Below are positions 45,603 to 60,572 of a stretch of DNA of 64,000 nucleotides, one piece after another; the stretch's first letter is position 1, and each line of letters opens with the position of its first letter. Source of the stretch: a virus; the IMG/VR virus record IMGVR_UViG_3300041955_000531; one strand, given 5' to 3'. The notes under the pieces were generated by a model. It saw only the letters and a program-made list of their open reading frames with translations. It made no database searches and was not told where the DNA came from. Both the position numbers and the translations under genes were made by a program.

Positions 45603-45649
45603 AAAAAAAGGGGCCTATTTCCATTCTTGGAGATAGGCCTTTGCTTTTT
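45603..45649. terminator. Bidirectional intrinsic terminator overlapping the 3' end of the EndoVII gene
   Basis: A7 tract, stem GGCCTATTTCC/GGAGATAGGCC, then TTTGCTTTTT, at the convergence of the two strands. Confidence 0.75.
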
Positions 45650-46115
45650 CTATGAGTTCGGGATGCTTTTCAACCATTGCGATTATCTGATTGTTGCATT
45701 TTGAATGAAGAATACTACGAGGTTTTCCAGTTTCATGATTGTGATCCCAATGACATTTTTCAAGATTGACTGGTAACTCTTTCCCGCATAATCCACATAT
45801 ACCTTTTTGCTTCTGGTATTGTTTTAGCTTGGCTTCGTGCGTAAAATACGTGTTTGAAGCAGATGTTATTCCTTCTGAACGGAATCGTTTCCCTTTGCGT
45901 TCTTTGCTTTGACGTTCCCCACAACATCTTGGGCAGCCTTTTGATGTCCCCGAACGTAAAGAATGTCCGAATACTTCTTTCGTTGTATGTTCACACACTA
46001 CTTTCCAAGTTTGTAGTCGAACTTTCTTTCCTTTGAAGATGTAAGTTCGCTTGCGTCCTTTTCCAATAACAAGCCAGTTCCCAAATACTTGTCCTTTCAA
46101 ATCAATCTGTCTCAT
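45615..46115 (-). CDS. Endonuclease VII-family HNH (probable homing endonuclease)
   Basis: QKGICGLCG...WDHNHETGKPRSILHSKCN; N-terminal IDLKGQVFGNWLVI module; start moved to ATG 46115 with GAGG RBS. Confidence 0.88.
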   Translation of the reverse strand: MRQIDLKGQVFGNWLVIGKGRKRTYIFKGKKVRLQTWKVVCEHTTKEVFGHSLRSGTSKGCPRCCGERQSKERKGKRFRSEGITSASNTYFTHEAKLKQYQKQKGICGLCGKELPVNLEKCHWDHNHETGKPRSILHSKCNNQIIAMVEKHPELIEKAKAYLQEWK

Positions 46116-46130
46116 GATAGCCTCTCGAGA

Positions 46131-46142
46131 CTGATTAGTATA
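46131..46142 (-). promoter_or_regulatory. Promoter-like motif TATACTAATCAG
   Basis: Exact 12-mer 15 nt upstream of the EndoVII start. Confidence 0.6.
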
Positions 46143-46145
46143 GAC

Positions 46146-46188
46146 ATAAAAATAGGGCCTCCATTGCTGGAGGCCCTTGTTTTGTTTT
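46146..46188. terminator. Intrinsic terminator, probably bidirectional
   Basis: 10-bp stem AGGGCCTCCA/TGGAGGCCCT flanked by A-rich and T-rich tracts. Confidence 0.85.
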
Positions 46189-46374
46189 ATAATCTTATCT
46201 TTGCGCCTTCCCACGAGACCAACAAGCTGAATGCTCTCTTGAAGATCTTCTATAGCTCCTGCCGTTGTGTCGGATGCTTGGGTTAGCTCGGCCGTCGTAT
46301 AGTATTACGTTTTTAGCCGCCGACTCGATGTGCCTCGTAAAATAGACACACCCGCGGCAAGCTATCATGTACTA

Positions 46375-47149: not shown

Positions 47150-47500
47150 TGGTGGAGGCGCGGGGAGTTGAACCCCGGTCCAAAAAGCATCACAACTGCG
47201 GTACTACATGCGTAGTCCTATCACTTCTATCGTCGGCCACAGTAAGCAAGGACAACTCTCTGTAGCCCCGTTCCCTATTGTTTTAAGCACTCATAGTTAG
47301 AGCAGCACTATGAATCACCGAGCCTGCTAGTTTACGCCCTAGCCCAGTCAGCAGACATCGCCAGGTAGGACGTGGCTGCATTAAGCAGCCAACGGCAGTT
47401 CAAAAGCTTCTGCAGTTAAAGTTTTCCATTCTCTTACGGTGGTATGGGCACCGGCATGCACCTAGGTCGATCAGGCTTCTGTCGAAACCAAGTCGCCCCC
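47150..47500 (-). ncRNA. ssrA: tmRNA; tag peptide (A)AEAFELPLAA* at 47413-47381
   Basis: 5' GGGGGCGACTTGGTTTCGAC, 3' GGGTTCAACTCCCCGCGCCTCCACCA, G3.U pair, 351 nt, tag ending in LAA. Confidence 0.97.
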
Positions 47501-47705
47501 AAGATCAAAAGTTCGGGATAGCAGGCTTGAAGATCTTCTTCGATCTTGTTAGCCTGTAGAACAACCCGCTGATAGACATCTGGCCGTAGTCTACTCCGTA
47601 TGCATACTGCAGACTACAGAAGGATACCCGATGATACGGGTGCGCTCCTTGTTTGTACATCGATGTACATACTTCCAGAATGCCATCATAATCATTATAA
47701 CACAG

Positions 47706-48479
47706 TTACCCTGCTACGGAAAGCAAATCGGCCTTAAGTTGTGCCGCATCGAAGCCGGCAGGATCCCAAGCAGCGCCCAGCAAAGTGTGGGATTCATCAC
47801 AATACTTATCCCAGAAGGCCACGGTCATCTTCTGGAGCTGGCCCCAAGTGATGCAAGTAATGGTTGTAGCTCCGCCGGCATTAGTGTCCTTGACGTGGTA
47901 GGCTGGGCAATAAACAGCGTGACCGCCAACTATACCACCATCATGCTTGACAACGTCCCAGATCTTACCATTCTGATTCTGGATGATGGCCGAATAGGGA
48001 ACCTGCAAACCAATATAGACACCACCGAACTCTGCAACCGAGTGCATGATGTGTCCGAAGTTCTGAGGCTGTGGGCTAACATAAGCCTCCAGCACATGAC
48101 CGCCAAACGTCTGCTGATACCATCTCTTGAGGACTGTGCTCTCGTCGCCGCCGTTATCTGTATTGGGGTTACCAAGAACATAACCATCCCACTCTTCGTA
48201 CTTAGCCAGGATGAGGCTGTCTGGAGGAGTGATTTTACCCTTTGTCCAGACTTGAATAGCATGGCCTGGAGCGGCGATGGTGCAGTCTCCTATACCATCC
48301 GTGGGGACGTTCTCCCCGTAGTTGTTCGGACCGTTGAGCATCATGCCCCAGCTTGTAATGCCGTAAGTATTCTGGGCATAAGGCGGTGGGGTGTAGGAGG
48401 ACTTGATATAGTCCTTCATGCGTGGCTCGTAAGGGTCGAACTTAGCAGCTGTCTTACCGAGTTTGGGGATGAATGTCAT
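47706..48479 (-). CDS. Papain-like (C1-type) cysteine peptidase
   Basis: IGDCTIA (Cys), DNGG, GGHAV (His), ITWG. Confidence 0.75.
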   Translation of the reverse strand: MTFIPKLGKTAAKFDPYEPRMKDYIKSSYTPPPYAQNTYGITSWGMMLNGPNNYGENVPTDGIGDCTIAAPGHAIQVWTKGKITPPDSLILAKYEEWDGYVLGNPNTDNGGDESTVLKRWYQQTFGGHVLEAYVSPQPQNFGHIMHSVAEFGGVYIGLQVPYSAIIQNQNGKIWDVVKHDGGIVGGHAVYCPAYHVKDTNAGGATTITCITWGQLQKMTVAFWDKYCDESHTLLGAAWDPAGFDAAQLKADLLSVAG

Positions 48480-48490
48480 ATTGTCTCCTA

Positions 48491-49432
48491 TTAGACTGAT
48501 GGTCGATGGTGATGATGGTGATGGTGATGCTCGTGATGATGATGTCGATGATCATGGCATTCTGGATTCTTGCAATGCCATTCATCAACCAGCGCGCGCA
48601 TCTGAGGTGGCTTGTTTTGTGCGGCGTAATAGCGATGCGAGAGGGTGTTGTTCACACCTGATGTGGTTTGATTTTCCCACATACGCTCTTTCCAATGGAC
48701 CCAGTCTTGTATCCCTTGGGGTCCAATCTGTGGGTGCCACATGTGCAGAACCTGTCCAGGCATAGTCTTGTGCATTCCATAGAGTGTATCCATGGCACGC
48801 ATAGCGGCATGATCCTCACCGCCCCAGCCGCGGAAGCGAACATCCCAACCACCTACCAGCTCAAAAGCCTCACGAGGTACGATCTGAATCATTGCCCCAT
48901 AGTAATGACCGACTCCTGGATCAGTATCTCCCAGGATATACTCTGCATCTGGGGGAGAAGAGAATGTTGATGGTGATGCAGGATCAGATTGTAGCAAGTG
49001 CTTCGATGCTGTCTCTGTCAGACGATAGAACTTGCGATAAGGAACGAACCAGAGCTTATGCCCACGCTTACGGGCGTGGCGAATCTCCTCTACGCAATGT
49101 ATAACTACATCAGCAGTAACATATCCGTCTGCATCCACGATGACAAATACATCACCGCTAGCTTTGGATGCTGCAGCGTTCACTGCAACTGACTTGGAGA
49201 ATGGTTCTATATTAGGCTCGTCGCCAATAATGATCTCGGCGCCTGGAAGCTGAGTAGCCCAATATCTCTTAAGCCATGCAATGTTTCTTATGCGGGGACT
49301 TGATTGGTCGGTGCAACGGAATGGAATCAAGATACTTACTCCATGTCCCTTACGCAGCCGCCATGCAGCCAGGTATGCGAGGCCACTCGCAGCCAAGACT
49401 GACATAGCTGTGATGAGCATAACTGGGGTCAT
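48491..49432 (-). CDS. GT-A glycosyltransferase (GT2/GT7-like) with N-terminal TM helix and His-rich tail
   Basis: SILIPFR, FSKSVAVN, VDAD, GGWDVRFRGWGGED; C-terminal poly-His run. Confidence 0.9.
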   Translation of the reverse strand: MTPVMLITAMSVLAASGLAYLAAWRLRKGHGVSILIPFRCTDQSSPRIRNIAWLKRYWATQLPGAEIIIGDEPNIEPFSKSVAVNAAASKASGDVFVIVDADGYVTADVVIHCVEEIRHARKRGHKLWFVPYRKFYRLTETASKHLLQSDPASPSTFSSPPDAEYILGDTDPGVGHYYGAMIQIVPREAFELVGGWDVRFRGWGGEDHAAMRAMDTLYGMHKTMPGQVLHMWHPQIGPQGIQDWVHWKERMWENQTTSGVNNTLSHRYYAAQNKPPQMRALVDEWHCKNPECHDHRHHHHEHHHHHHHHRPSV

Positions 49433-50205
49433 TTCAACTCCCTTCCAAGCGCTCTGAAGGCATCATAGACGGCGAACTTGACATCTTCAACAAAGAACCT
49501 GTTAGGTGTTGTTACTTTCCCTGTAATGAATGGTGTCTTGATCGAGGCGCTGTAGTCCCTGAACTTGAAATCCCCACCATCTTTTGTCAGCTTTGGGCAC
49601 ATCTCCACTCTGCGTGGAATGGCGAAGCCATCTGCTACAATCATACCGTGTAGCGAAGAGGTTACAATCTTGCGGCATGCACCGATCTGGCGTATGACTT
49701 CCAGTGGGTCACCAGTCGGGTCAATAACTTTAGTGGTATAAGGCTTTTGAATCAGAGGAATGAATCGTGCTGCCAGCTCTTTGTCTTGCCAGTGCGGCAC
49801 GATGCCTAGGTCCCATTGCTTCTCTTGTAGTCCTACAAGTTCATCGGCTAGTATGCCTGGATCGCCGATAGCAAAGCTACCTGGTATTCCTTTTGCTGAT
49901 AATGGGCCACGAATGGCGAGTATCTTGGCTGTTACGCCAGACTTAAGTTGTTGCAGTTGCAGGCGGGAGTTTTCAATCAGCCTGCCAGATCCAAGAATAT
50001 AGCCGTCCCACAATGGCGGGATGTGTTCAAGTATCGAACCGACTGATGCTATTGAAGAATGAGAAATCGTATCCCACTCCACCTTGACTTCGGCGAAGTG
50101 TTCGAGCAATAAAGGCGCCATCGTATCGCCAAAGTTAGGAACTTGATTCCACCAATACGCTTTGACTGTATGATCTGCGAAGGGGTTTTGAAACCTGAAC
50201 TTCAT
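49429..50205 (-). CDS. Polysaccharide pyruvyl transferase (ExoV-like)
   Basis: NFGD, VGSIL, IRGPLS, GDPGIL, GIVPH, TSSLHGMIVAD. Confidence 0.9.
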   Translation of the reverse strand: MKFRFQNPFADHTVKAYWWNQVPNFGDTMAPLLLEHFAEVKVEWDTISHSSIASVGSILEHIPPLWDGYILGSGRLIENSRLQLQQLKSGVTAKILAIRGPLSAKGIPGSFAIGDPGILADELVGLQEKQWDLGIVPHWQDKELAARFIPLIQKPYTTKVIDPTGDPLEVIRQIGACRKIVTSSLHGMIVADGFAIPRRVEMCPKLTKDGGDFKFRDYSASIKTPFITGKVTTPNRFFVEDVKFAVYDAFRALGRELK

Positions 50206-50225
50206 TTAGGCCGTCTTCCAGAATG

Positions 50226-50654
50226 TTATTTCGATAAACTCAGTGCCTTCAACAGTACTGCAACACGGGCTAATGCTCTTTCGAGATCGCCCGAAGCTGC
50301 CTGAGGACCGTGCTGAGGTTGAAAGCCATTCAGCCACAGGTCCATCAGCTTGCCCCATAACTTACCAGCTACCTTCGCGCGCCAGGCATGAGTAGACATC
50401 GTCTCATCCTGCGCTCCCCATAAGACTACCACGTTCAGGAAGATATCCAAAGCTACCAGCGCTCTGTGCCAGTATGGTTCTGCTGCTGCCTTGGCTTCTG
50501 CCAGAGGTACATCATCAGGATAGACAAACGGCTTGGCGCCCTTATCTATCCAGTGTCTAACGGATCCTATTGCTACTGAAAGGAATACAAGTCCTGCTAC
50601 AGCGCTGCCGAATATCTCGCCGCCCAGTAGGAACTTGTGCAACAGATCCATCAT
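50226..50654 (-). CDS. Membrane-associated phage hypothetical protein
   Basis: GGAG RBS; TM segment; LDIFLN...DETMS motif. Confidence 0.7.
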   Translation of the reverse strand: MMDLLHKFLLGGEIFGSAVAGLVFLSVAIGSVRHWIDKGAKPFVYPDDVPLAEAKAAAEPYWHRALVALDIFLNVVVLWGAQDETMSTHAWRAKVAGKLWGKLMDLWLNGFQPQHGPQAASGDLERALARVAVLLKALSLSK

Positions 50655-50669
50655 TGTGTTTCTCCAAAA

Positions 50670-50748
50670 TGGTCGGAGAGGAGAGATTTGAACTCTCGAT
50701 CTCGTGCGCCCAAGGCACGCGCCTTAAACCGGACTAGGCCACTCTCCG
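50670..50748 (-). tRNA. tRNA-Pro(TGG)
   Basis: Cloverleaf, loop CT-TGG-GC, encoded CCA. Confidence 0.95.
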
Positions 50749-50749
50749 T

Positions 50750-50823
50750 TGGTACCCGAGCAGAGACTTGAACTCTGTTCTCCAGCTTGAAGGGCTGGTG
50801 TCTTACCCATATACGACTTGGGC
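50750..50823 (-). tRNA. tRNA-Glu(TTC), C33
   Basis: Stem CCAGC/GCTGG, loop CC-TTC-AA, CCA. Confidence 0.85.
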
Positions 50824-50825
50824 AC

Positions 50826-50984
50826 TTAAGACTTTGTTGTACCTGGCAGGATGTTCTTGATCCATGCTAGGATACTATCAACGCGCGCGATGAAGTTAGG
50901 ATAGTGCTGCTGGAACTTCATGCCGCCAAAGAAAACAAGAAGGGTAAGAATCCCTTCCACTACAACCTTGAGAAGTGTGAACAT
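50826..50984 (-). CDS. Small membrane protein (52 aa)
   Basis: AGGAG RBS before MFTLLKVVVEG; one TM segment. Confidence 0.65.
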   Translation of the reverse strand: MFTLLKVVVEGILTLLVFFGGMKFQQHYPNFIARVDSILAWIKNILPGTTKS

Positions 50985-51070
50985 AACGTCTCCTAAACTC
51001 TGGCTACGCTTCGGCTCGAGGCGCCCACGTAGCCATGCGATGTGTCCTCGCTTAGACACATCTAAACTGT

Positions 51071-51145
51071 TGGTAGTCTCGGCGAGATTCGAACTCGCGT
51101 GACCAGCTTGAGAAGCTGGCATCCTCGCCACTAGATGACGTGACC
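51071..51145 (-). tRNA. tRNA-Glu(CTC)
   Basis: Loop TT-CTC-AA, CCA. Confidence 0.92.
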
Positions 51146-51154
51146 ACCGAAAAC

Positions 51155-51190
51155 TGGCGGGACCAACGGGATTTGAACCCGTGATCCTGC
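51155..51190 (-). pseudogene. 3' remnant of an Asp-like tRNA
   Basis: GCAGG-ATC-ACGGG-TTCAAAT-CCCGT-TGGTCCC-GCCA: T arm and acceptor strand only. Confidence 0.8.
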
Positions 51191-51197
51191 TAAATCT

Positions 51198-51272
51198 TGG
51201 CGGAACCAGCGGGAATCGAACCCGCATCCCACCCGTGACAGGGGTGCGTCATAGCCATTAGACCATGGCTCC
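51198..51272 (-). tRNA. tRNA-Asp(GTC)
   Basis: Loop CT-GTC-AC, GCCA end; its first 15 nt overlap the HNH ORF end. Confidence 0.95.
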
Positions 51273-51593
51273 GTGATGTTTCATTCGGTGATGGTTAGCA
51301 CACAGGATGTCACACTTAGCTATTTCTTCCTGGATGCGTTTCAACGACCATCCCTTACGATTAAAGGAGCCGATCTCGAAAGACTTCTGCGCAGGATTTC
51401 TGTGATGGAAATCCAAGGCACTTGGGTGTTCTTTGAAACCACATACCTTGCAGCCTCTCTCGAGTTTATAGTCTTCGATCCACTTCTTGTTCCGAGCTAT
51501 CCGTAGCTTATCACACTTGCGGACGGCTTTCAAATGCTTCTTGCGATTCGCTGGATTACTATACCACTTCTTCCAAGCTTCTTGATTACTCAT
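51258..51593 (-). CDS. HNH endonuclease
   Basis: GCKVCG...LDFHHRNP...EIAKCDILCANHH; GAGGAG RBS. Confidence 0.9.
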   Translation of the reverse strand: MSNQEAWKKWYSNPANRKKHLKAVRKCDKLRIARNKKWIEDYKLERGCKVCGFKEHPSALDFHHRNPAQKSFEIGSFNRKGWSLKRIQEEIAKCDILCANHHRMKHHGAMV

Positions 51594-51596
51594 TGC

Positions 51597-52000
51597 TGCT
51601 CCTCGGATAGAGGAGTCAGCCTATCAACATCCCGCCATCGGCTAACCGCCGCGGTTTACCATCACGATTGCTTTGTCAAGGCAACCGATAAATACGAGGA
51701 TCTAACTGCAACACTCAAAGGCGACGCCAGCTCTCCCCCGTAATATGAGGGGGCACCAGCTTATGCAGTGGTGTCTGCAGCTCCTGCAGATCCAAGATGG
51801 GCGCGAGCAAGCCCGAAGCCTGACACTGTTCGGCTTTGGCCTCGGTAAGAGCGAGCAAAACAGTAAAAGGAACGCTCACTTACCCGCAAAGAACAACTGA
51901 CCTGAGTGATAAGTCTCACTCTATCCCGCGAGCGCTTTCCCAAACATCGGGCCGATGTAACGTCGCTTGCCGCTTTCCAAAGCGGCCAGGATAGAAGGAC
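51597..52000 (-). ncRNA. Candidate large structured ncRNA (about 400 nt), family unassigned
   Basis: No credible ORF; about ten hairpins visible by eye. Strand inferred from the surrounding operon. Confidence 0.6.
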
Positions 52001-52003
52001 TAC

Positions 52004-52171
52004 TCACTTACTACAGGTCAAACTCTTCAATCTTTCAATCTCGTTTGCTGCTTCTTCCAGAAGATCGGCGATACGATCAGGCTTGCCTTCCTGTACGCTC
52101 TTGCGTGTAGTTATCTGCCTTCGTATCTCGGCGCGCTTGCGCAGCCTGCTAATCAGATCTTCCGTACTCAT
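52004..52171 (-). CDS. Small phage hypothetical protein (55 aa), not in ORF track
   Basis: Hand translation MSTEDLISRLRKRAEIRRQITTRKSVQEGKPDRIADLLEEAANEIERLKSLTCSK; pattern recalled from other phages. Confidence 0.75.
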   Translation of the reverse strand: MSTEDLISRLRKRAEIRRQITTRKSVQEGKPDRIADLLEEAANEIERLKSLTCSK

Positions 52172-52176
52172 AAACT

Positions 52177-52250
52177 TGGTCCCTTGGGATGGGCTCGAAC
52201 CATCATCTCCTGATCTTCAGTCAGGGGTCCTACCATTGAACGACCGCGGG
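52177..52250 (-). tRNA. tRNA-Phe(GAA), atypical body
   Basis: Loop CT-GAA-GA; two acceptor-stem mismatches; CCA. Confidence 0.75.
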
Positions 52251-52252
52251 TT

Positions 52253-52341
52253 TGGAGGAAGGCCAGAGAATCGAACTCTGTCTCGCCTTTCGACGAGTCT
52301 CGGTTTTCGGGACCGTTGCCGACCATTCAGCGCTGCCCTCC
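52253..52341 (-). tRNA. tRNA-Ser(CGA), C33
   Basis: Loop CC-CGA-AA, long variable arm, TCCA end. Confidence 0.8.
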
Positions 52342-52347
52342 TAAACT

Positions 52348-52437
52348 TGGCGGAGGGTGTAGGATTTGAACCTACGCTGGCTTTCACCAGGCCTCAGGTT
52401 AGCAACCTGGCGCCTTTCCAAACTCAGCCAACCCTCC
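52348..52437 (-). tRNA. tRNA-Ser(GCT)
   Basis: Loop TT-GCT-AA, long variable arm, GCCA. Confidence 0.93.
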
Positions 52438-52506
52438 GAATACACGGGTAGATCGTGATGAGTTTCTACTACTCGAGTTGGCTGTTGCGTTCATCATACT
52501 AATCCT

Positions 52507-52584
52507 TGGCAGGCCAGGATGGATTTGAACCACCGTCATCGGTTTTGGAGACCGAGGTCCTGGGCCAGACTAAACGACCGGCCT
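52507..52584 (-). tRNA. tRNA-Trp(CCA)
   Basis: Loop CT-CCA-AA, GCCA. Confidence 0.95.
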
Positions 52585-52588
52585 GCGA

Positions 52589-52801
52589 TTAAACTATACC
52601 ACCGAATGGCGGCTGGCCAGCATCCACCAGCTTCTGTTCGAGAACCCTGATAGCGCATACGAGAGTCTTGATCAGATTCTCGTTATCGGTATCCTTGAAG
52701 GGTATGTCCAACAGTACTTCGCCACCAACTACACCGACAAAAGCTCTCTTCTGCTTTGTGTCGGGGTCTACTATTTCAGTTACGTATGATTCGATGATCA
52801 T
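52589..52801 (-). CDS. Hypothetical protein
   Basis: 70-aa ORF filling the gap between tRNAs, AAGGA RBS. Start approximate. Confidence 0.6.
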   Translation of the reverse strand: MIIESYVTEIVDPDTKQKRAFVGVVGGEVLLDIPFKDTDNENLIKTLVCAIRVLEQKLVDAGQPPFGGIV

Positions 52802-52811
52802 TGTCAGTCCT

Positions 52812-52848
52812 TGGTGGAGCAGATGGGAATCGAACCCTCTCTCAAAAC
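52812..52848 (-). pseudogene. 3' half of a disrupted tRNA-Ala
   Basis: GGG-TTCGATT-CCCAT-CTGCTCC-ACCA; acceptor strand is complementary to the 5' half at 53456-53499. Confidence 0.85.
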
Positions 52849-52886
52849 CTTATAGCTCCTATACTATTCAAATATAGAGGAGCTTT

Positions 52887-52962
52887 TGGTGGAGCATGCG
52901 AGATTTGAACTCGCCGCCTCCGCATTGCAAGTGCGGCGCTCTCCCAAATGAGCTAATGCCCC
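52887..52962 (-). tRNA. tRNA-Ala(TGC)
   Basis: GGGGCAT/ATGCTCC with G3.U70, loop CT-TGC-AA, ACCA. Confidence 0.97.
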
Positions 52963-52963
52963 A

Positions 52964-53455
52964 ATGAAAACTATAACACGAACCTGCTTAAATCCAAAAT
53001 GCAAGAAACAGTTTGAAGCTGAACTCCGAGAAGTACATCGCGGTAATGGTAAATATTGCTGTTTACAATGCTGCCTTAATCACATAAGACCAGTAGGTCG
53101 CACTTTACATACACTAACTTGTTCCTACTGCTTCAAAGAGTTTAAAGATGATCGACCCCTTGTGCCAGGTTTGCCTGATATTGTAGTGCCAGATATACTG
53201 CCTCGTCGATACTGTAGTCGGCAATGTAAGGATCTGAATCATAGAAATGATTGTCATGATGCTCGAACACTGGCGTTTCGCAACTTTCCACATAAATGCA
53301 ATCGCTGTAACTGGGATACAGAACCAGCGGTTCTGGAAGTTCATCACAAAGACCGCAACAGAGAAAACAATGAGCTATCTAATCTTGAACTACTTTGCCC
53401 AACTGATCATTGTTTAGATCACTTTCTTGCAAAAGATGGCAAGTGGCGCAAGTAA
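52964..53455 (+). CDS. HNH endonuclease with N-terminal Zn-finger modules
   Basis: CLNPKC, YCCLQC, CSYC, YCSRQC, then CNRC...LEVHHKDRNRENNELSNLELLCPTDH; AT-rich; the only clear + strand gene in the island. Confidence 0.92.
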   Translation: MKTITRTCLNPKCKKQFEAELREVHRGNGKYCCLQCCLNHIRPVGRTLHTLTCSYCFKEFKDDRPLVPGLPDIVVPDILPRRYCSRQCKDLNHRNDCHDARTLAFRNFPHKCNRCNWDTEPAVLEVHHKDRNRENNELSNLELLCPTDHCLDHFLAKDGKWRK

Positions 53456-53499
53456 CTTATGCTTGCAAAGCATCTGCGCTCCCGTTGCGCCACTGCCCC
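53456..53499 (-). pseudogene. 5' half of disrupted tRNA-Ala(TGC)
   Basis: GGGGCAG-TG-GCGC-AACGGGA-GCGC-A-GATGC-TT-TGC-AA-GCATA: acceptor strand, D arm and anticodon arm, then it stops. Confidence 0.88.
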
Positions 53500-53510
53500 A
53501 CGGAAAATCT

Positions 53511-53621
53511 AATCCTAGATTGACAGCCGGACCAGCGGCGATAAGGTATGTCCGGATTGTGCGCGGCTTTTCTGGTTAGTATCCTGCGTCTAACCATCCT
53601 ATTGACCGCCAATCTAGGGTT
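53511..53621 (-). ncRNA. Candidate structured RNA (about 110 nt)
   Basis: About 15-bp closing stem plus two internal hairpins (TGGTTAG/CTAACCA and CCGGAC/GTCCGG). Confidence 0.5.
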
Positions 53622-53652
53622 GATGACCAACTCAACTTGAGTTTGTCAAACT

Positions 53653-53730
53653 TGGTCGGGGAGGGAGGATTCGAACCTCCGTTCTCCTGAATCCGAATCA
53701 GGCGCCTTGGACCAGCTAGACCACTCCCCG
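53653..53730 (-). tRNA. tRNA-Pro(CGG)
   Basis: Loop TT-CGG-AT, ACCA. Confidence 0.93.
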
Positions 53731-53780
53731 ATACTAAACCTTTACGGTCGTTCGGGTCGTGGCTCTAGTCCGCGCGTCAT

Positions 53781-54134
53781 TTAGAAACTCATTCCTAGTA
53801 TCTTGCGATTACGGATCACCATAGCGGTTTCTCCGATCGCTACTGCTCCCCAAAAGATGTATGCGGCCGGCATGCTGTAGTAAGCAAAAGCCCCGCCTGC
53901 AAAAGTAACAAAGGCGCCTTCAAGGAAACAAGTCAAAGCTTGTCCTATCTTGCCGAAGAGCCAGCGATTCCAAGGACTCATTTCTTTATCGCCCTTGGAA
54001 AGGCCAATACCAGTATACCAGCAATCACCGAGCATGGCAACTATAGTATACACGTACACCAGGAACAGCCCTAGAGAATCCCAGAAGCCTGGCTGATTAG
54101 GCCACAAACGCGGATCATCGGGTAGTTGAAACAT
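53781..54134 (-). CDS. Membrane protein (DUF5658-like)
   Basis: DxxxT..GL..G.KE..P motif between TM segments; AAGGAG RBS. Confidence 0.65.
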   Translation of the reverse strand: MFQLPDDPRLWPNQPGFWDSLGLFLVYVYTIVAMLGDCWYTGIGLSKGDKEMSPWNRWLFGKIGQALTCFLEGAFVTFAGGAFAYYSMPAAYIFWGAVAIGETAMVIRNRKILGMSF

Positions 54135-54155
54135 TGTTTCTCCTTCTATAAACTC

Positions 54156-54245
54156 TGGTGGAGACGATAGGATTTGAACCTATTCTAGTCCCATTGGGAC
54201 CTGGGGTTACGGCCCAGTGCAGATCCCCGTCTCTGCTGCGCCTCC
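54156..54245 (-). tRNA. tRNA-Tyr(GTA), C33
   Basis: Loop CC-GTA-AC, long variable arm, ACCA; unusual 5-bp D stem. Confidence 0.85.
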
Positions 54246-54313
54246 ATGGAAGCGCACCTCTCCGTGCGCTCATTAAGCGCTACGATAACCGACTCCGCTG
54301 CTCTGTCCACCTT

Positions 54314-54631
54314 TCATGGTACATTCCTATAGTTGTTCACTGTGCAGTAGACGTGATAAGCTGCCTGGCACAAATACCCAACTCCAAATCCGTATCCTGC
54401 AGGTGTCCAGTAATGCGCTGCAATACCTGCTACAAGAACCTCGAGTGCTACGGCAATGCTGCTACGAACCCACATCCTCTTCACTGAAGGATCATCGGTG
54501 CCGTAGATCCAGATCATGATTCGATCTGCTTCAGTGTAACCTTTCCTCAGAAAGCGAGCTGTGCTGACTCCATCCGCTGTTGCAGCTGGGATCAGAATAC
54601 CCACTGCGATCTTGAGAAGCGTTGGTATCAT
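54314..54631 (-). CDS. Membrane protein, probably related to 53781..54134
   Basis: DGVSTARFLRKGYTEAD motif plus TM segments. Confidence 0.6.
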   Translation of the reverse strand: MIPTLLKIAVGILIPAATADGVSTARFLRKGYTEADRIMIWIYGTDDPSVKRMWVRSSIAVALEVLVAGIAAHYWTPAGYGFGVGYLCQAAYHVYCTVNNYRNVP

Positions 54632-54858
54632 TGCGCTGTCTTTCTCCTGTATTGACGAACCTTTTCGAAAACCCAGTTGACCGTTGAGTACGCGTGCTCA
54701 TCTTCTAACTTGTGATCCTCGATTAGGTGCACAGTCATTCGGTTGCACATGCCGCGAATAACACAGTGTTTGCAGAGTTCACAATCACGAAGCATCGGGA
54801 TGTCCGGATCGAACTGGGGTTTCTCTTTGAACCAACACAACAAAAATCCGAATGTCAT
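54628..54858 (-). CDS. Small protein with C2H2-like pattern
   Basis: Start moved to ATG 54858 outside the tRNA; CELC...HLIEDH. Confidence 0.55.
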   Translation of the reverse strand: MTFGFLLCWFKEKPQFDPDIPMLRDCELCKHCVIRGMCNRMTVHLIEDHKLEDEHAYSTVNWVFEKVRQYRRKTAQ

Positions 54859-54877
54859 CGTGCTCTCGCTATAAACT

Positions 54878-54962
54878 TGGTGTACCTGAGAGGATTCGAA
54901 CCTCCACGCCTTGCGGCACGCGGCTCTCAACCGCGGCTGGCTACCAGTTTCAGCACAGGTAC
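54878..54962 (-). tRNA. tRNA-Leu(GAG)
   Basis: Loop TT-GAG-AG, long variable arm, ACCA. Confidence 0.93.
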
Positions 54963-54963
54963 T

Positions 54964-55052
54964 TGGTGCTGAAGGAGAGATTCGAACTCTCACGGCTTTC
55001 TAGGGCCACAGGGGCTTGAGCCCTGCGCGGCTGCCAGTTACGCCACTCCAGC
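54964..55052 (-). tRNA. tRNA-Leu(CAA)
   Basis: Loop CT-CAA-GC, long variable arm, ACCA. Confidence 0.93.
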
Positions 55053-55065
55053 ACATCTATAAACT

Positions 55066-55144
55066 TGGTGCGCTGGGTGGGATTCGAACCCACAAAATCT
55101 CCTCGGTCTGAACGAGGCGGCTTTGCCATTTTGTCCACCAGCGC
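55066..55144 (-). tRNA. tRNA-Leu(CAG), short variable region
   Basis: Loop TT-CAG-AC, 7-nt unpaired variable region, ACCA. Confidence 0.88.
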
Positions 55145-55234
55145 CTTGAACTACAAGGTCCGGGGACGGCAGTCCGCGGGCCTGCTAACTAAGCAGGCCT
55201 AGCAATCGAATACATCCGCCCATTGTATCGTTCA

Positions 55235-55639
55235 TCATGATTCCATTGTATCACACTGCCAGGCGTTCAGGCCATGGAACAGTGACTTACCTTTCTTCCT
55301 CGAACAAAAGACTGCAACCGCGGTTAAGAGGGCTTCTTCTGTCTGATAGTACCCGGGGTTGGTATCGCGAAACTCTTCCCACGGTAGACGCGCGTGTGAG
55401 ATTTGATGACGGACTTTCTCCAGCTCGTTGCTGTCAACGACTTTGAGGATGATGGTTGTGTGCTCTTCATCAGGGTCCAGTTTAAGTCTCAACTTCAGTT
55501 TCGATACTACATGACATGCCTGGGCTATACAACGGCCGCAAGACATCGGAATAATCTCCCTCAGGAACATCGTAGGTGATATTACGAATGAAGGGAGAAT
55601 AACGTAAATCCTTTTTTCAACTACGGTGCCTGGGGCCAA
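55235..55639 (-). CDS. Peptidyl-tRNA hydrolase type 2 (Pth2)-like protein
   Basis: MSCGRCIAQACHV, TTIILKV, FRDT, LTAVAV. Confidence 0.8.
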   Translation of the reverse strand: MAPGTVVEKRIYVILPSFVISPTMFLREIIPMSCGRCIAQACHVVSKLKLRLKLDPDEEHTTIILKVVDSNELEKVRHQISHARLPWEEFRDTNPGYYQTEEALLTAVAVFCSRKKGKSLFHGLNAWQCDTMES

Positions 55640-55997
55640 GGACTCTACCTCTCAAAGCCATTCCAATCTTGGCTTTGTGTTCCTCAGACATAGGACCGCG
55701 TTTTGTTCCTGTCTGAGAACCACGGATCTTCGCTGCAATCGCTGGACTACCAGCTGTACGAATAGCATGACAGTTAGCGCAAACTAAATCGCACTTATCA
55801 GCCTCTCGTTTCAGTTCTTCAAGAGATCGATGTAATCCCGAGCTAATAGAAAAGAGTTTAGTACTCGGGTCACGATGATCAAAATGAAAGCAACAGTCAG
55901 GAAAGATATGATTGCAATCAAGACACTTGCCACCTTTGTAGAGAACAAGCTGATGTTTCTTCTCTTGGCGTTTACTCTTTAATCCTAACCATGTCAT
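55617..55997 (-). CDS. HNH endonuclease with C-terminal NUMOD3 motif
   Basis: KGGKCLDC...FDHRDP...EADKCDLVCANCH; MSEEHKAKIGMALRG. Confidence 0.9.
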   Translation of the reverse strand: MTWLGLKSKRQEKKHQLVLYKGGKCLDCNHIFPDCCFHFDHRDPSTKLFSISSGLHRSLEELKREADKCDLVCANCHAIRTAGSPAIAAKIRGSQTGTKRGPMSEEHKAKIGMALRGRVLGPRHRS

Positions 55998-56034
55998 TGC
56001 GCTTCTCTACTTTGGGCGTCTCTTTCATAAGCTT

Positions 56035-56110
56035 TGGCTGGAGCGGAAGGAATCGAACCTTCAAGTGGATGAGTAACAGTCATCTGCTGTACCGGTTGAG
56101 CCACACTCCA
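56035..56110 (-). tRNA. tRNA-Asn(GTT)
   Basis: Loop CT-GTT-AC, GCCA. Confidence 0.92.
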
Positions 56111-56448
56111 GTAGAATCTTTTAGTTGTAGGGAGCTAGCTCGCCAGGACGGCAAGCCGAAGAGGAGGGTTACTTACTCTTTGGTTGCGGTAATGGCTTCT
56201 GCGGCTTATACATATTGACTGTCGCCGCTGCTAGTCGTGTGGCCCCATGGTTGAACCATGAGGCCTTCCGAACTTTCTTCTTGCCGGCCATTACCGTTTC
56301 CGGTTAGGCTGACTTGACGCCCGAGTTTGCCACCTTCGGCTGAGTCGGCTTGATAGCCTTTGCCTTGTGTGTGGTCGGGGACGCGAAGATCGGGTCGCCT
56401 ATATACGGGGTCTTGCTAAGTTGTGCTGGGGGTGTCTTAGACCCGTTA

Positions 56449-56580
56449 CTATTCTTCATGTTGTTCTCCATTATTCTGTTTTTGCTTCTGTCGCCAGCCA
56501 CAATAGGGACAGACGAACTCGTCTTTCGGTTCCTTCTTTGAGGCTTGCTTATTGCATACAGGACACTTCATAGTACACAT
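56449..56580 (-). CDS. Small zinc-ribbon protein (43 aa)
   Basis: CPVC...CPYCG; GAGGT RBS. Confidence 0.6.
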   Translation of the reverse strand: MCTMKCPVCNKQASKKEPKDEFVCPYCGWRQKQKQNNGEQHEE

Positions 56581-56598
56581 AGCATACCTCTTGGATAT

Positions 56599-56733
56599 CA
56601 ATAGCGCACGGCTTACATGACAACCGCGCTGGCCTTCCGGTGGGCCAACTTCCAAATCGTCCAGCGTCCCGAACGATTCAGCACCTGCCCTCGGTGTACA
56701 GAGGGGCTACCTTGTCACTTTTCGCGCTACCAA
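56599..56733 (-). ncRNA. Candidate multibranch structured RNA (about 135 nt)
   Basis: Closing stems GGTAGCGCG/TGCGCTATT and TGACAA/TTGTCA enclosing three hairpins. Confidence 0.55.
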
Positions 56734-56737
56734 TCTT

Positions 56738-56849
56738 TGGAGCTCCAGGTGGGTTTTTCACCATACCGATTTTCACCGGCAACAGGAGTTTAGCCTGCCA
56801 CGACCCCCGGATTAGAAGTCCGGTGCTCTAATAACTGAGCTACTGAAGC
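56738..56849 (-). tRNA. tRNA-Arg(TCT)-like with a 36-nt structured insertion in the T arm
   Basis: Normal acceptor (GCTTCAG/CTGGAGC-TCCA), D arm and anticodon arm (CT-TCT-AA); 112 nt in total. Confidence 0.75.
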
Positions 56850-56868
56850 TAGAAGCCTTCTCAATCTC

Positions 56869-56944
56869 TGGAGCGGCTAATCGGATTCGAACCGATACAT
56901 CCTGCTTGGAAGGCAGGCATGCTGGCCGTTAACATCACAGCCGC
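56869..56944 (-). tRNA. tRNA-Gly(TCC)
   Basis: Loop CT-TCC-AA, TCCA. Confidence 0.95.
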
Positions 56945-56953
56945 TGGTCCCGA

Positions 56954-57076
56954 TTATCCCTTAAGAGGACCCACCGTGTACTTTGGTGATTGGTCGGGTC
57001 GAAAACCTTTCTTGAAGAACGGCGCGAAGTAAACAGCGCCCAGTAAAATAGTGCAAGTTATTGCATAAGCTAGCAT
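56954..57076 (-). CDS. Small membrane peptide (40 aa)
   Basis: ATG outside the tRNA; one TM segment; weak RBS. Confidence 0.45.
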   Translation of the reverse strand: MLAYAITCTILLGAVYFAPFFKKGFRPDQSPKYTVGPLKG

Positions 57077-57085
57077 AAGATCTCG

Positions 57086-57159
57086 TGGAGCGAAATGCCG
57101 GATTCGAACCGGCGCTCGAACCTTGGCAAGGTTCTGTACTACCACTATACGAATCCCGC
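57086..57159 (-). tRNA. tRNA-Gly(GCC)
   Basis: Loop TT-GCC-AA, TCCA. Confidence 0.93.
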
Positions 57160-57169
57160 TCATTCCCTA

Positions 57170-57181
57170 CTGATTAGTATA
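57170..57181 (-). promoter_or_regulatory. Promoter-like motif TATACTAATCAG
   Basis: Exact 12-mer 10 nt upstream of tRNA-Gly(GCC). Confidence 0.6.
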
Positions 57182-57355
57182 GTAGTTGCCTACGTATAAC
57201 TAACCAATAGAACCTACAACACTTATCTGATTTCACCAATCTACAGCGTATCTGAAAGCTTCCATCTCTTTCTATGGTGCGCAGCCGGAAAACAGCGCGC
57301 CACCATTTAGAGCAGGTAGGATAGATTGGATCGAACACAACCCATTATACCATAC

Positions 57356-57565
57356 TTAGATCAGCTTGGATGGCCCAAATGCGAATCTCTTGCCACCATT
57401 GGTTCCTTCGCTGATGGCGGGGCGGCTCATGAACTCCCATTGCTTTGTTGTATGGTTCCACGTTCGATTCACTCTGACGCCAAGCATCATCTTGGTGCCG
57501 CCAGCCAAGGTGACACCCTGACCCACTGATGGGCATTGCTTCGGTGCTGGTCTTCCTTGGTTCAT
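57356..57565 (-). CDS. Hypothetical protein
   Basis: GAGGT RBS; fills the gap downstream of tRNA-Thr. Confidence 0.5.
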   Translation of the reverse strand: MNQGRPAPKQCPSVGQGVTLAGGTKMMLGVRVNRTWNHTTKQWEFMSRPAISEGTNGGKRFAFGPSKLI

Positions 57566-57575
57566 TGTGACCTCG

Positions 57576-57660
57576 TGGAGCAGGGTGGAGGACTCGAACC
57601 TCCGTGGATTTTACTCGCCGCATTACAGGTGCGGTGCTGTCGCCACTGAGCCAACCCTGC
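57576..57660 (-). tRNA. tRNA-Thr(TGT), C33, long variable region
   Basis: Stem CCGCA/TGCGG, loop CC-TGT-AA; G1-C72, C2-G71 and U73 are compatible with Thr. Confidence 0.78.
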
Positions 57661-57671
57661 TAGTAATCTTG

Positions 57672-57745
57672 TGGCTGCCTTCGAAGGACTCGAACCTTCA
57701 TATCCAGCTCCAGAGGCTGGCGTCCTACCATTAAACGAGTAGGCA
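57672..57745 (-). tRNA. tRNA-Gln(CTG)
   Basis: Loop CT-CTG-GA, U1-A72, GCCA. Confidence 0.92.
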
Positions 57746-57752
57746 ACGGTAT

Positions 57753-57899
57753 TTAGAAGTTCGGATTGTTGGCTATCTGGTAGGTGATATAAGCATAATA
57801 GCTTGCTACCACCGCTAGGGTAATCAGAGCAAGTGCAAATGCCCGCCATCCGATCTCTGCTATGTGCTTGACTTCTTTGACTTCTCTTTCTACGCTCAT
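57753..57899 (-). CDS. Small membrane protein (48 aa)
   Basis: GAGG RBS; one TM segment. Confidence 0.6.
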   Translation of the reverse strand: MSVEREVKEVKHIAEIGWRAFALALITLAVVASYYAYITYQIANNPNF

Positions 57900-57916
57900 G
57901 TATGCCTCTTTAAACC

Positions 57917-57993
57917 TGGCGGGCCTGGAGAGATTCGAACTCTCTAGTTGGCAGGTTAGAACTCTGCTGCTCGTCCAATCGAGCTTCAAGCCC
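57917..57993 (-). tRNA. tRNA-Arg(TCT), imperfect anticodon stem
   Basis: GCAGA-GT-TCT-AA-CCTGC with an A31/C39 mismatch; GCCA. Confidence 0.75.
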
Positions 57994-58001
57994 GCGAAAC
58001 T

Positions 58002-58081
58002 TGGCGCGCTATGAGAGATTCGAACTCCCGACCCCTCGGTCCGTAGCCGAGTGCTCTTGGTTTCCGCTGAGCTAATAGCGC
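58002..58081 (-). tRNA. tRNA-Arg(ACG)
   Basis: Loop CT-ACG-GA, enlarged D loop, GCCA. Confidence 0.93.
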
Positions 58082-58082
58082 T

Positions 58083-58157
58083 TGGTAGGTTCGGCGGGCA
58101 TCGAACCCGCAACTCCCTGCTTAAAGGGCAGGTACTCTACCATTGAGTTACGAACCT
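58083..58157 (-). tRNA. tRNA-Lys(TTT), C33
   Basis: Stem CCTGC/GCAGG, loop CC-TTT-AA, ACCA. Confidence 0.9.
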
Positions 58158-58160
58158 ACG

Positions 58161-58235
58161 TGGTTGGTAGACCTGGACTCGAACCAGGATCTTGGGGTTC
58201 AAGGCCCCACGTGCTACCATTTGCACCACCTACCA
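58161..58235 (-). tRNA. tRNA-Gln(TTG), C33
   Basis: Stem TGGGG/CCCCA, loop CC-TTG-AA, ACCA. Confidence 0.9.
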
Positions 58236-58238
58236 GTG

Positions 58239-59135
58239 TTACTGTGGCAGGTTGGTTCGTTGCTGGTTTGTATCAGCTGTCCTACCTGGTTCATCTTTCA
58301 TGCGATCAACCAAAGTGGACCTCGTTTCTGGCTTGCCTTTCGACTTCTTACAAATAGCTTCGTACGCGGCCAGAGCGCGATCACGGATGTCTTCATCCGG
58401 ATGCATGTATCCTACTATCTCGAGCGCTTCTCGAGTGTGGTGCCGGAAGTGAATAGGCAGGTTGCCCCACTCCGACGGATACATTTCGAATCTGGTCTCC
58501 AAGTTCATGAACTCTCTGTCCTTCATGTAGTGCGTATCTTCTTTCACGTTCTTCATTACAACCCAACGCAACCAGTGTGTAATTCTTCGGACTTCATCTT
58601 CTGTGGCGATGTCCGATCCGCGCATGGCGCAGAATAAAGCCGACTGCATCTTGCCTGTCAGCTGTAGAACCCAGTCCTGTATTACCCATTCGCCGCGGGC
58701 AATAGGACTGTCATCTTTCAGGCGCTGGATTATATCCACACGATCTTCTGGCAGAATACTCTCGTGCTCTGTCAGATCATGATAGGCCTTCAATGCTTTT
58801 GCCTGGGTCCACTCGTCAGGGTGGAAGAAGGCTATGATAGCCAATGACTGTTTCAGGTGATCGTAGAAGTGTGTCTTCAGACGATCCCATTGCCAAGCAT
58901 CTTGATCCATAAGCGCTTTGATATCAATGAACTCTGTGTCTCTCATGAAATGAGATCTCGGATTGTTCAGCTTGATGCACTGCTTACGGATCCAACGTAC
59001 GACTCTCTTCACTTCTGGTGAATCATCTGAGTCGGCGCCACGGAAAGAGGCAACAAGCTCGGACTGCATACGTCCGGACATGCCGACCTCTTTGATCCAG
59101 TCCTTTAGATTGCACTCGCCTGGCTCGATGATCAT
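58239..59135 (-). CDS. Hypothetical protein made of two tandem homologous helical domains
   Basis: Repeated DW...MQS.L....RG.D...W.R...HF..H....L.I....HPDE pattern. Confidence 0.85.
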   Translation of the reverse strand: MIIEPGECNLKDWIKEVGMSGRMQSELVASFRGADSDDSPEVKRVVRWIRKQCIKLNNPRSHFMRDTEFIDIKALMDQDAWQWDRLKTHFYDHLKQSLAIIAFFHPDEWTQAKALKAYHDLTEHESILPEDRVDIIQRLKDDSPIARGEWVIQDWVLQLTGKMQSALFCAMRGSDIATEDEVRRITHWLRWVVMKNVKEDTHYMKDREFMNLETRFEMYPSEWGNLPIHFRHHTREALEIVGYMHPDEDIRDRALAAYEAICKKSKGKPETRSTLVDRMKDEPGRTADTNQQRTNLPQ

Positions 59136-59473
59136 ACAACTCTCTCAAAGTATTCTATCGCGAACTTCTGTCTTTCTTCTTCTAGCTCGCGTAGTCGTTC
59201 TTTCTCACGCACTAGAGCCTGGGCTTCTGCTATCTTTACAGGATCATGAAACTCCAGCCAGGCTCGCATGTAACAGTCACAGTAGGGAGTACCATTGTGA
59301 TACTCATCTCCTCTCACTGGGAGCATACTCCCTTCGTGGAAGCGATTATCACCTATATGTGCCGTCGCGTGTATCTCAAATGCTCGTTCCCAGATGGGCG
59401 CTGTTTCCTTACGCGCCTGCTCTGTTGGCAGAGGATATCCCTCACCGAGCACTTCTTTTGGGGTCTCTAACAT
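59132..59473 (-). CDS. Hypothetical protein
   Basis: GAGG RBS; ATGA overlap with next gene. Confidence 0.7.
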   Translation of the reverse strand: MLETPKEVLGEGYPLPTEQARKETAPIWERAFEIHATAHIGDNRFHEGSMLPVRGDEYHNGTPYCDCYMRAWLEFHDPVKIAEAQALVREKERLRELEEERQKFAIEYFERVV

Positions 59474-59489
59474 CTGCCCTCTTTAAATC

Positions 59490-59567
59490 TGGTACCGCGT
59501 CAAGGATTTGAACCTCGGACTTCCTCTTTGTAAGAGAGGCACTCTGACCGGACTGAGTTAACACGGC
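59490..59567 (-). tRNA. tRNA-Val(TAC)
   Basis: Loop CT-TAC-AA, ACCA. Confidence 0.94.
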
Positions 59568-59639
59568 ACATAAATCCAAGGCCGACCCCAGATACGGCCG
59601 CCAATGTTGCACTGGGACAGCTGTCGGCACTAATCTCAT

Positions 59640-59710
59640 TGCAGGGTGCTGGAATCGAACCAGCGTCTCCGGTCTTCATGGCCGGTATTCTTCCACTGCA
59701 CCAACCCTAC
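59640..59710 (-). pseudogene. Atypical or pseudo tRNA, anticodon undetermined
   Basis: Good acceptor and T arm (GCTGG-TTCGATT-CCAGC), 9-nt anticodon loop CCATGAAGA, weak D stem, no CCA. Confidence 0.7.
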
Positions 59711-59722
59711 GGCCTGCAGAAC

Positions 59723-59920
59723 TTATTTCACCTTGATTTCGGTGACGGGATAGTTGCTGTATGGAGTCTTCTGTACCGCGGCGAAGACGTCGCCAGTAAG
59801 GCGATCGATTACGTGCTTCACTTCGTCACGCGTCAGATCACGTCTCTTGTTGTTCACTTCGATTGTGATCCTGGTACGGGTGTTTCCATCATCTGCGACT
59901 ACTGTTGCGACTCGTTTCAT
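59723..59920 (-). CDS. Hypothetical protein
   Basis: AAGGAG RBS, 65 aa. Confidence 0.7.
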   Translation of the reverse strand: MKRVATVVADDGNTRTRITIEVNNKRRDLTRDEVKHVIDRLTGDVFAAVQKTPYSNYPVTEIKVK

Positions 59921-59940
59921 GGTCGTCTCCTTAAACTGAT

Positions 59941-60009
59941 TGGGGAATCCGGTCTCGGTCCGGAATCTCCCGGTACTATCCGGGGCTTTCGATCTTAAGC
60001 TATTCCCCA
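59941..60009 (-). ncRNA. tRNA-like cloverleaf with non-canonical loops
   Basis: Four perfect stems; 6-nt anticodon loop ATAGTA; T loop ACCGAGA; no CCA. Confidence 0.7.
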
Positions 60010-60018
60010 GGCTTACAA

Positions 60019-60450
60019 CTATTTCTCACGTGTGTAATGTTGACATTCTTTACACAAGTGATGTAATCCATTGAACTCACTTCTGTTCTTATTGAACTGT
60101 GAAATAGGAAGCATCTTCTTATGCCTACTACACCAGTTCATTCCTTCTGGCCTTTTGATAAAAGGTATGCCTTTTGGTGAATGAGGTCGATCAGGTTTAT
60201 TACAAGCAACATGTGAAAATGCTATGTTATTCAAATCCCAAAAGAGATCTGAACTAATATGTAACCACGGCTTTTTGTGCTCAATAGAAAAGTCTTCGAT
60301 CTTTTCTATTCGTGATCCACACTTGTAACACAGATCCTCATTCAATCTTTGTGCCATTCGAAAGAGCAAACTCTTTCTAAGTTTGGCCATTGCTGTACCA
60401 AACGGCATTCCCAACTGTGATGCCTTCACAGTGTTTGAAGTATTTGGCAT
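60019..60450 (-). CDS. HNH endonuclease with C-terminal Zn module
   Basis: CYKCG...SIEHKKPW...LNNIAFSHVACN; WCSRH...F.KN...GL..LCKEC; AGGAGG RBS; AT-rich. Confidence 0.9.
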   Translation of the reverse strand: MPNTSNTVKASQLGMPFGTAMAKLRKSLLFRMAQRLNEDLCYKCGSRIEKIEDFSIEHKKPWLHISSDLFWDLNNIAFSHVACNKPDRPHSPKGIPFIKRPEGMNWCSRHKKMLPISQFNKNRSEFNGLHHLCKECQHYTREK

Positions 60451-60471
60451 GGATACCCTCCTGCCTTTTAC

Positions 60472-60557
60472 TTGCGGAGGCTGGATTTGAACCAGCGGTG
60501 CCCTTTCGGTTCCAGTTTATGAGACTGGCGACATCGGCCTGACTAGTCGACCCCGCA
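60472..60557 (-). tRNA. tRNA-Met(CAT) with extended variable arm, no encoded CCA
   Basis: TGCGGGG/CTCCGCA acceptor, loop CT-CAT-AA, variable region AACCGAAAGGGCACC. Confidence 0.75.
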
Positions 60558-60572
60558 ACAGAAAATGAAAAT

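Follow-up and report, generated by a model that had tools for sequence, protein, structure and literature searches.

How can a mobile gene settle inside a conserved tRNA gene, and what becomes of the gene that it splits? In the phage sequence studied here, a tRNA-Ala(TGC) gene is divided by an insert that carries an HNH endonuclease gene together with a second, complete tRNA-Ala(TGC) gene. A preliminary description, made from the sequence alone, proposed a splicing-free destroy-and-replace homing element that targets the resident tRNA gene and rescues its function with a cleavage-resistant cargo tRNA, and it pointed to a similar arrangement at tRNA-Asp. We examined the window (the whole 64,000-nt stretch of IMG/VR record IMGVR_UViG_3300041955_000531) and compared it with loci and contigs retrieved by sequence search, which are denoted by L numbers.

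The window is part of a large tailed-phage genome, as indicated by a baseplate wedge gene; the longest contig with this HNH protein is 163 kb. It contains a minus-strand array of about 28 tRNA genes and a tmRNA, and this array holds four HNH genes. Six other, independent assemblies carry the same insert at 99.8-100% identity. Since an empty allele also exists and the layout recurs in unrelated phages, a chance arrangement or an assembly artefact is refuted. The parts of the locus are as follows.

53456-53499, minus strand: 5' half (nt 1-44) of the resident tRNA-Ala(TGC) gene, with the acceptor 5' strand, D arm and anticodon arm
52964-53455, plus strand: HNH endonuclease gene of 163 aa, with N-terminal Cys-rich zinc-binding modules and a C-terminal HNH motif; its stop codon abuts the 5' half
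52887-52962, minus strand: cargo tRNA-Ala(TGC), complete with CCA and G3.U70; its 5' end lies 1 nt from the HNH start codon
52854-52884, no strand assigned: hairpin with a -10-like TATACT on the plus strand (52860-52865), the probable HNH promoter region, firing through the antisense of the cargo tRNA (promoter function inferred)
52838-52853, minus strand: 3' junction zone, with 8 nt matching old tRNA positions 40-47 (including a 5-bp repeat), then 6 extra nt and two changed T-stem bases
52812-52837, minus strand: 3' half of the resident gene, with most of the T arm, the acceptor 3' strand, discriminator and CCA
53442-53451, plus strand: arm of a 10-bp inverted repeat (last HNH codons, K-W-R-K), complementary to 53485-53494

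All of the named parts were found where the preliminary description had placed them, and its observation is confirmed. The acceptor strands of the two halves pair at 7 of 7 positions with G3.U70. The HNH protein matched PF13392 above the cut-off and PHROG HNH families, and its gene has 41% GC against 50% for the window. The cargo tRNA was recognised by ARAGORN and by Rfam (67 bits) and is 68% identical to the old gene. The hairpin has a fold z of -3.1. However, a sigma-70 scan found no full promoter and no -35 box there. A 23-codon reading frame (52896-52967, plus strand) runs through the antisense of the cargo tRNA and stops on a TGA that overlaps the HNH start codon, while in L024 and L029 (two further split loci) the HNH frame itself is open through the cargo from an upstream ATG. 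This is a possible route for translating past the tRNA, but it may be chance.

Next, we asked whether an uninterrupted allele exists, a point that had been set beforehand as a test. A pattern search found the intact 75-nt gene in two viral contigs (L011 and L021; positions 5576-5650 in L021), whose flanks are 82-92% identical to the window in the same gene order. The 215-kb record, estimated complete, has no member of the HNH family. Against this allele the window keeps 44 of 44 nt at the 5' end and 26 of 26 nt at the 3' end, with 618 nt inserted between them at the variable loop. Five nt of the intact gene are unaccounted for at the identity boundaries. Joining at the 5-bp repeat (53456-53460 and 52849-52853) gives 81 nt, 6 more than the original, with a mismatch in the T stem. 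ARAGORN accepted nearly every in silico join of the halves at the relaxed threshold and is therefore uninformative about the junction.

To see which features of the junctions are general, we compared the window with the sister insertion L024. Here the same tRNA is split at the same place (41 and 27 nt identical to the intact gene), but the HNH gene is only 72% identical in DNA, with saturated synonymous sites (pS 0.84), and the cargo tRNA is 61% identical. The 5-bp direct repeat is absent in L024, which rules it out as a general target-site duplication. The 10-bp inverted repeat beats shuffles in the window (2 of 2000 reach it) and in the folded transcript it would pair with the old acceptor/D strand. 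Nevertheless, L024 has only 5 bp of it and it overlaps the conserved K-W codons, so we rejected it as a terminal repeat. Both repeats are real in the window but lineage-specific. The 6 extra nt, which the preliminary description had called consistent with decay, are shared with L024, so they belong to the cassette end rather than being private decay.

The two halves are unexpectedly pristine. Four-fold sites of shared genes differ by 32% between the window and the empty-allele phage and by 54% between the window and L024, and the gene next door differs at 6 of 71 third positions. Neutral pseudogene halves would have drifted, yet these differ only next to the junction, where the window and L024 share a core with the 6 extra nt. 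This means that the halves are recent, refreshed by repeated homing, or functional. Other tRNA genes at the same place in the array (window 47150-60558 against L021 and L024) are either nearly identical or wholly replaced between relatives, for example Leu-CAA, Pro-CGG, Asp, Glu-CTC, Lys and Thr at 47-77% against Ser-GCT at 100%, which indicates gene-by-gene turnover. A 145-nt structured insert (53508-53652; a long stem with inner hairpins, z -2.8, no Rfam match) lies between tRNA-Pro(CGG) and the Ala 5' half. It is absent in the empty-allele phage, and L024 has a different insert of similar size at this place.

We then collected homologues of the HNH protein by protein similarity only and reduced them to 73 clusters at 90% identity. 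A tblastn search of cultured phages gave no match. Fifty-six clusters have an ARAGORN tRNA-Ala within 200 nt, and ten more have an Ala-like gene found by HMM, often with a non-canonical T loop, which makes 66 of 73; Phe and Pro follow with 9 each. Eleven clusters (the window, L024, L027, L029, L038, L039, L046, L047, L059, L064 and L127) show 5' half, HNH, cargo and 3' remnant, in ten different tRNA-Ala genes. Acceptor positions 4-7 pair with their own partner at 38 of 40 positions, against 21 on average for permuted partners, and none of 100,000 permutations reached 38. This test is partly circular for L038, L046 and L064, whose 3' remnants were spotted by eye. Ten of 13 orphan 5' pieces end between positions 36 and 46, just 3' of the anticodon, mostly at the HNH stop codon.

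Split loci lie in several parts of the HNH tree, although this was a quick tree with many open branches and bounds the number of independent splits only as 2 to 6. In the window's own clade (99% support) four of five loci are full splits of three different tRNAs. L024 and L029 share a cargo (87%) but not a target, so HNH and cargo moved together. The -10-like hexamer in a hairpin behind the cargo is kept in four of the five, with the same hexamer at the same place in L024, L026 and L029. In 48 homologues His127/128, Asn140, His149 and the Cys residues are invariant, and pN (0.10-0.26) is a quarter or less of pS (0.67-0.92) in most pairs, so the nuclease is under purifying selection. A Foldseek search of the PDB gave no match at E 0.001 and only weak HNH matches, including I-HmuI at E 0.9.

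The family also has more complicated members. L118, L131 and L154 are multiply nested, with two or three tRNA-Ala genes or halves of different anticodons (TGC, CGC, GGC) around one HNH gene. L191, a Floridaenema flaviceps contig, has a full-length family member with an adjacent tRNA-Ala in a cyanobacterial genome's tRNA array, and L204 shows a split Val(TAC)-like gene around a family member, a possible switch of isotype. Of 61 tRNA-Ala genes beside this HNH family, among them those at L032, L033, L035, L037, L043, L072, L075, L093, L111 and L116, 22 have non-canonical T loops and many have an unusual D arm, and several are missed by ARAGORN. This would fit escape from T-loop-reading nucleases such as SegB. 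A distant subfamily of the same HNH group (genome loci L193-L270) lies directly 5' of tRNA-Ser(TGA) on the same strand, often overlapping it, in most of the 80 genome loci, mainly from Patescibacteria/CPR genomes. It is a second isotype-locked HNH-tRNA pair, in cellular genomes, and a literature search found no description of it.

The tRNA-Asp locus, in contrast, is only a partial parallel and was rejected as a second full example. At 51158-51593 there is an HNH gene of another family (111 aa, PHROG 2255) on the tRNA strand, whose end overlaps tRNA-Asp(GTC), followed by an orphan 3' half like that of the HNH-free Asp gene in L024. The 5' half is missing and is replaced by about 130 nt with a hairpin and TTGACA. 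Two more HNH genes lie behind tRNA-Asn and tRNA-Met (55617-55997 and 60019-60450), and an endonuclease-VII-type gene (45615-46214) lies near the array. The empty-allele phage has an HNH-like gene behind tRNA-Glu(CTC) instead.

Taken together, we favour, with reasonable confidence, a free-standing homing endonuclease that attacks tRNA-Ala(TGC) genes and travels with a replacement tRNA, which looks like a natural cut-and-replace gene drive aimed at one tRNA gene. In this view the HNH protein nicks or cuts the gene just 3' of the anticodon, and repair from a donor phage copies in the HNH gene plus the linked tRNA-Ala, leaving the recipient gene in two halves. The cargo tRNA, co-transcribed with the cluster, would restore Ala(UGC) decoding, so that no splicing is needed. 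The cargo would be trapped between the HNH start codon and its probable promoter, which keeps the two together. First entry into a new tRNA allele would be by non-homologous repair of the break, while later spread would use the halves and flanks as homology arms, and the halves would be refreshed or kept by that use. However, homing normally co-converts flanks from the donor, so refreshing needs crossovers close to the junction. Our analysis demonstrates the insertion, the empty allele, the isotype specificity, the repeated splits, the clustered break points and the selection on the protein, whereas DNA cleavage and its site, cargo resistance, promoter activity, homing with biased inheritance and the absence of splicing are inferred. 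The interpretation in the preliminary description is therefore partly supported. Its cleavage-resistant cargo has only weak support: C31-U32 occurs in 6 of 10 split genes and in 15 of 61 intact neighbours (p 0.03, post hoc, no phylogenetic correction), and every target-cargo pair differs within positions 31-39. Moreover, the sister cassette L030, 63% identical in protein, sits beside a tRNA 88% identical to the window's old gene. That may be a counter-example, or a sign that sister nucleases differ in specificity and displace each other's cargo, since the 5' remnant of L030 resembles the window's cargo.

We considered whether the HNH gene and a tRNA-Ala could simply form an old linked module, with the tRNA between promoter and start codon. 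The nuclease would then cut tRNA genes generally, like SegB, or another site, and the module would land in tRNA-Ala genes because its own tRNA gives homology for faulty recombination, with a cargo that rescues by accident and is not resistant. It is true that 55 or so of the 73 clusters show no halves, that cargo sequences are very diverse and 15 of 61 keep the commonest anticodon-arm 9-mer of the split genes, that some family members sit on the other side of the tRNA or beside other isotypes, and that SegB is not isotype-specific. Nevertheless, a crossover in tRNA homology gives hybrid tRNAs and not a whole cargo nested between two halves with non-homologous junctions. In addition, the break points cluster at 36-46, and the Ala linkage survives saturation of the HNH sequence and turnover of the cargo sequence. 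We regard this reading as unlikely. It is even less likely that the halves still work as RNA, either because an unknown splicing route removes the insert as an intron with a nested tRNA, or because processing of the cargo leaves a two-piece tRNA-Ala nicked in the variable loop. Such function would explain the pristine halves and the retention of the anticodon arm, G3.U70 and CCA, and a similar nest in Lak phages was read as an intron (PMC6784885). However, no group I or group II intron model matched in Rfam at gathering or at E up to 10, and the insert is filled by the ORF, the tRNA and a 34-nt hairpin. The junctions differ between the window and L024, no cut points restore the 75-nt gene, and the window's T stem has a mismatch. 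In other loci (L127, L046, L038, L064) the halves are broken inside the anticodon arm or have lost the T arm, and a same-anticodon cargo makes them redundant.

A broader reading is possible but tentative. Isotype-specific HNH-plus-tRNA cassettes may be a widespread, undescribed class of home-and-rescue selfish elements, in which each nuclease family reads one anticodon arm in DNA, destroys that tRNA gene and carries a resistant isoacceptor, and successive variants displace each other's cargo, as the relation between the window and L030 might suggest. This cycle would explain the high sequence diversity, odd T loops and rapid turnover of tRNA genes in phage arrays. On the reading that we favour, the element is a third way, beside splicing and att-site restoration, for a mobile element to occupy a conserved tRNA gene. 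It offers a testable cause for the diversity and turnover of tRNA genes in large phages, now mostly ascribed to codon usage or escape from host tRNA nucleases, and an alternative reading of "enigmatic" phage tRNA introns. The locus is well suited to a test because the exact intact target, the occupied allele and four sister cassettes with different targets and cargos are all in hand. If specificity is confirmed, these 160-aa nucleases would be a set of small, anticodon-specific DNA-targeting enzymes.

We searched the literature on HNH, homing and split, partial or nested tRNA genes and, within a collection that covered few subscription journals, found no paper describing an isotype-specific HNH cassette with a replacement tRNA; Al-Shayeb 2020 has no passage on nested tRNAs. 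HNH genes are known as the commonest ORFs in tRNA arrays of mycobacteriophages and plasmids and were proposed to spread or diversify tRNA genes (PMC5966550, PMC6409571, citing Pope et al. 2014), but these two papers describe no isotype specificity, split genes or replacement cargo. Phage T4 SegB, a free-standing homing endonuclease, is likewise encoded by an intron-less gene in a phage tRNA cluster, which cuts inside tRNA genes, is absent from relatives and spreads with neighbouring tRNA genes (PMC2330249; PMC13096335). However, SegB is a GIY-YIG enzyme that lies between tRNA genes, recognises the T-loop motif common to many isotypes and cuts near CCA, whereas here a gene with HNH family matches only lies inside a tRNA gene, is tied to one isotype and carries a same-anticodon copy. 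In Lak megaphages a whole tRNA is nested in an insertion that splits a tRNA-Thr(TGT) gene, and alleles with and without the insert exist (Devoto et al. 2019, PMC6784885); it was read there as an intron, with no endonuclease reported in the passage concerned and no mechanism proposed. Fungal mitochondrial homing-endonuclease elements (Allomyces atp6, Ophiostoma rps3; PMC4019555) also neutralise insertion by a carried replacement piece and not by splicing, and the displaced original end stays as a remnant. They replace only the 3' end of a protein gene by in-frame fusion, while here a complete stand-alone RNA gene is carried and both halves of the old gene are abandoned. Finally, elements that integrate into tRNA genes by an integrase also keep tRNA function, but they restore the target by supplying its 3' end through one crossover. 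Here the insert holds one HNH ORF, there is no integrase and no att core, and the target is not restored.
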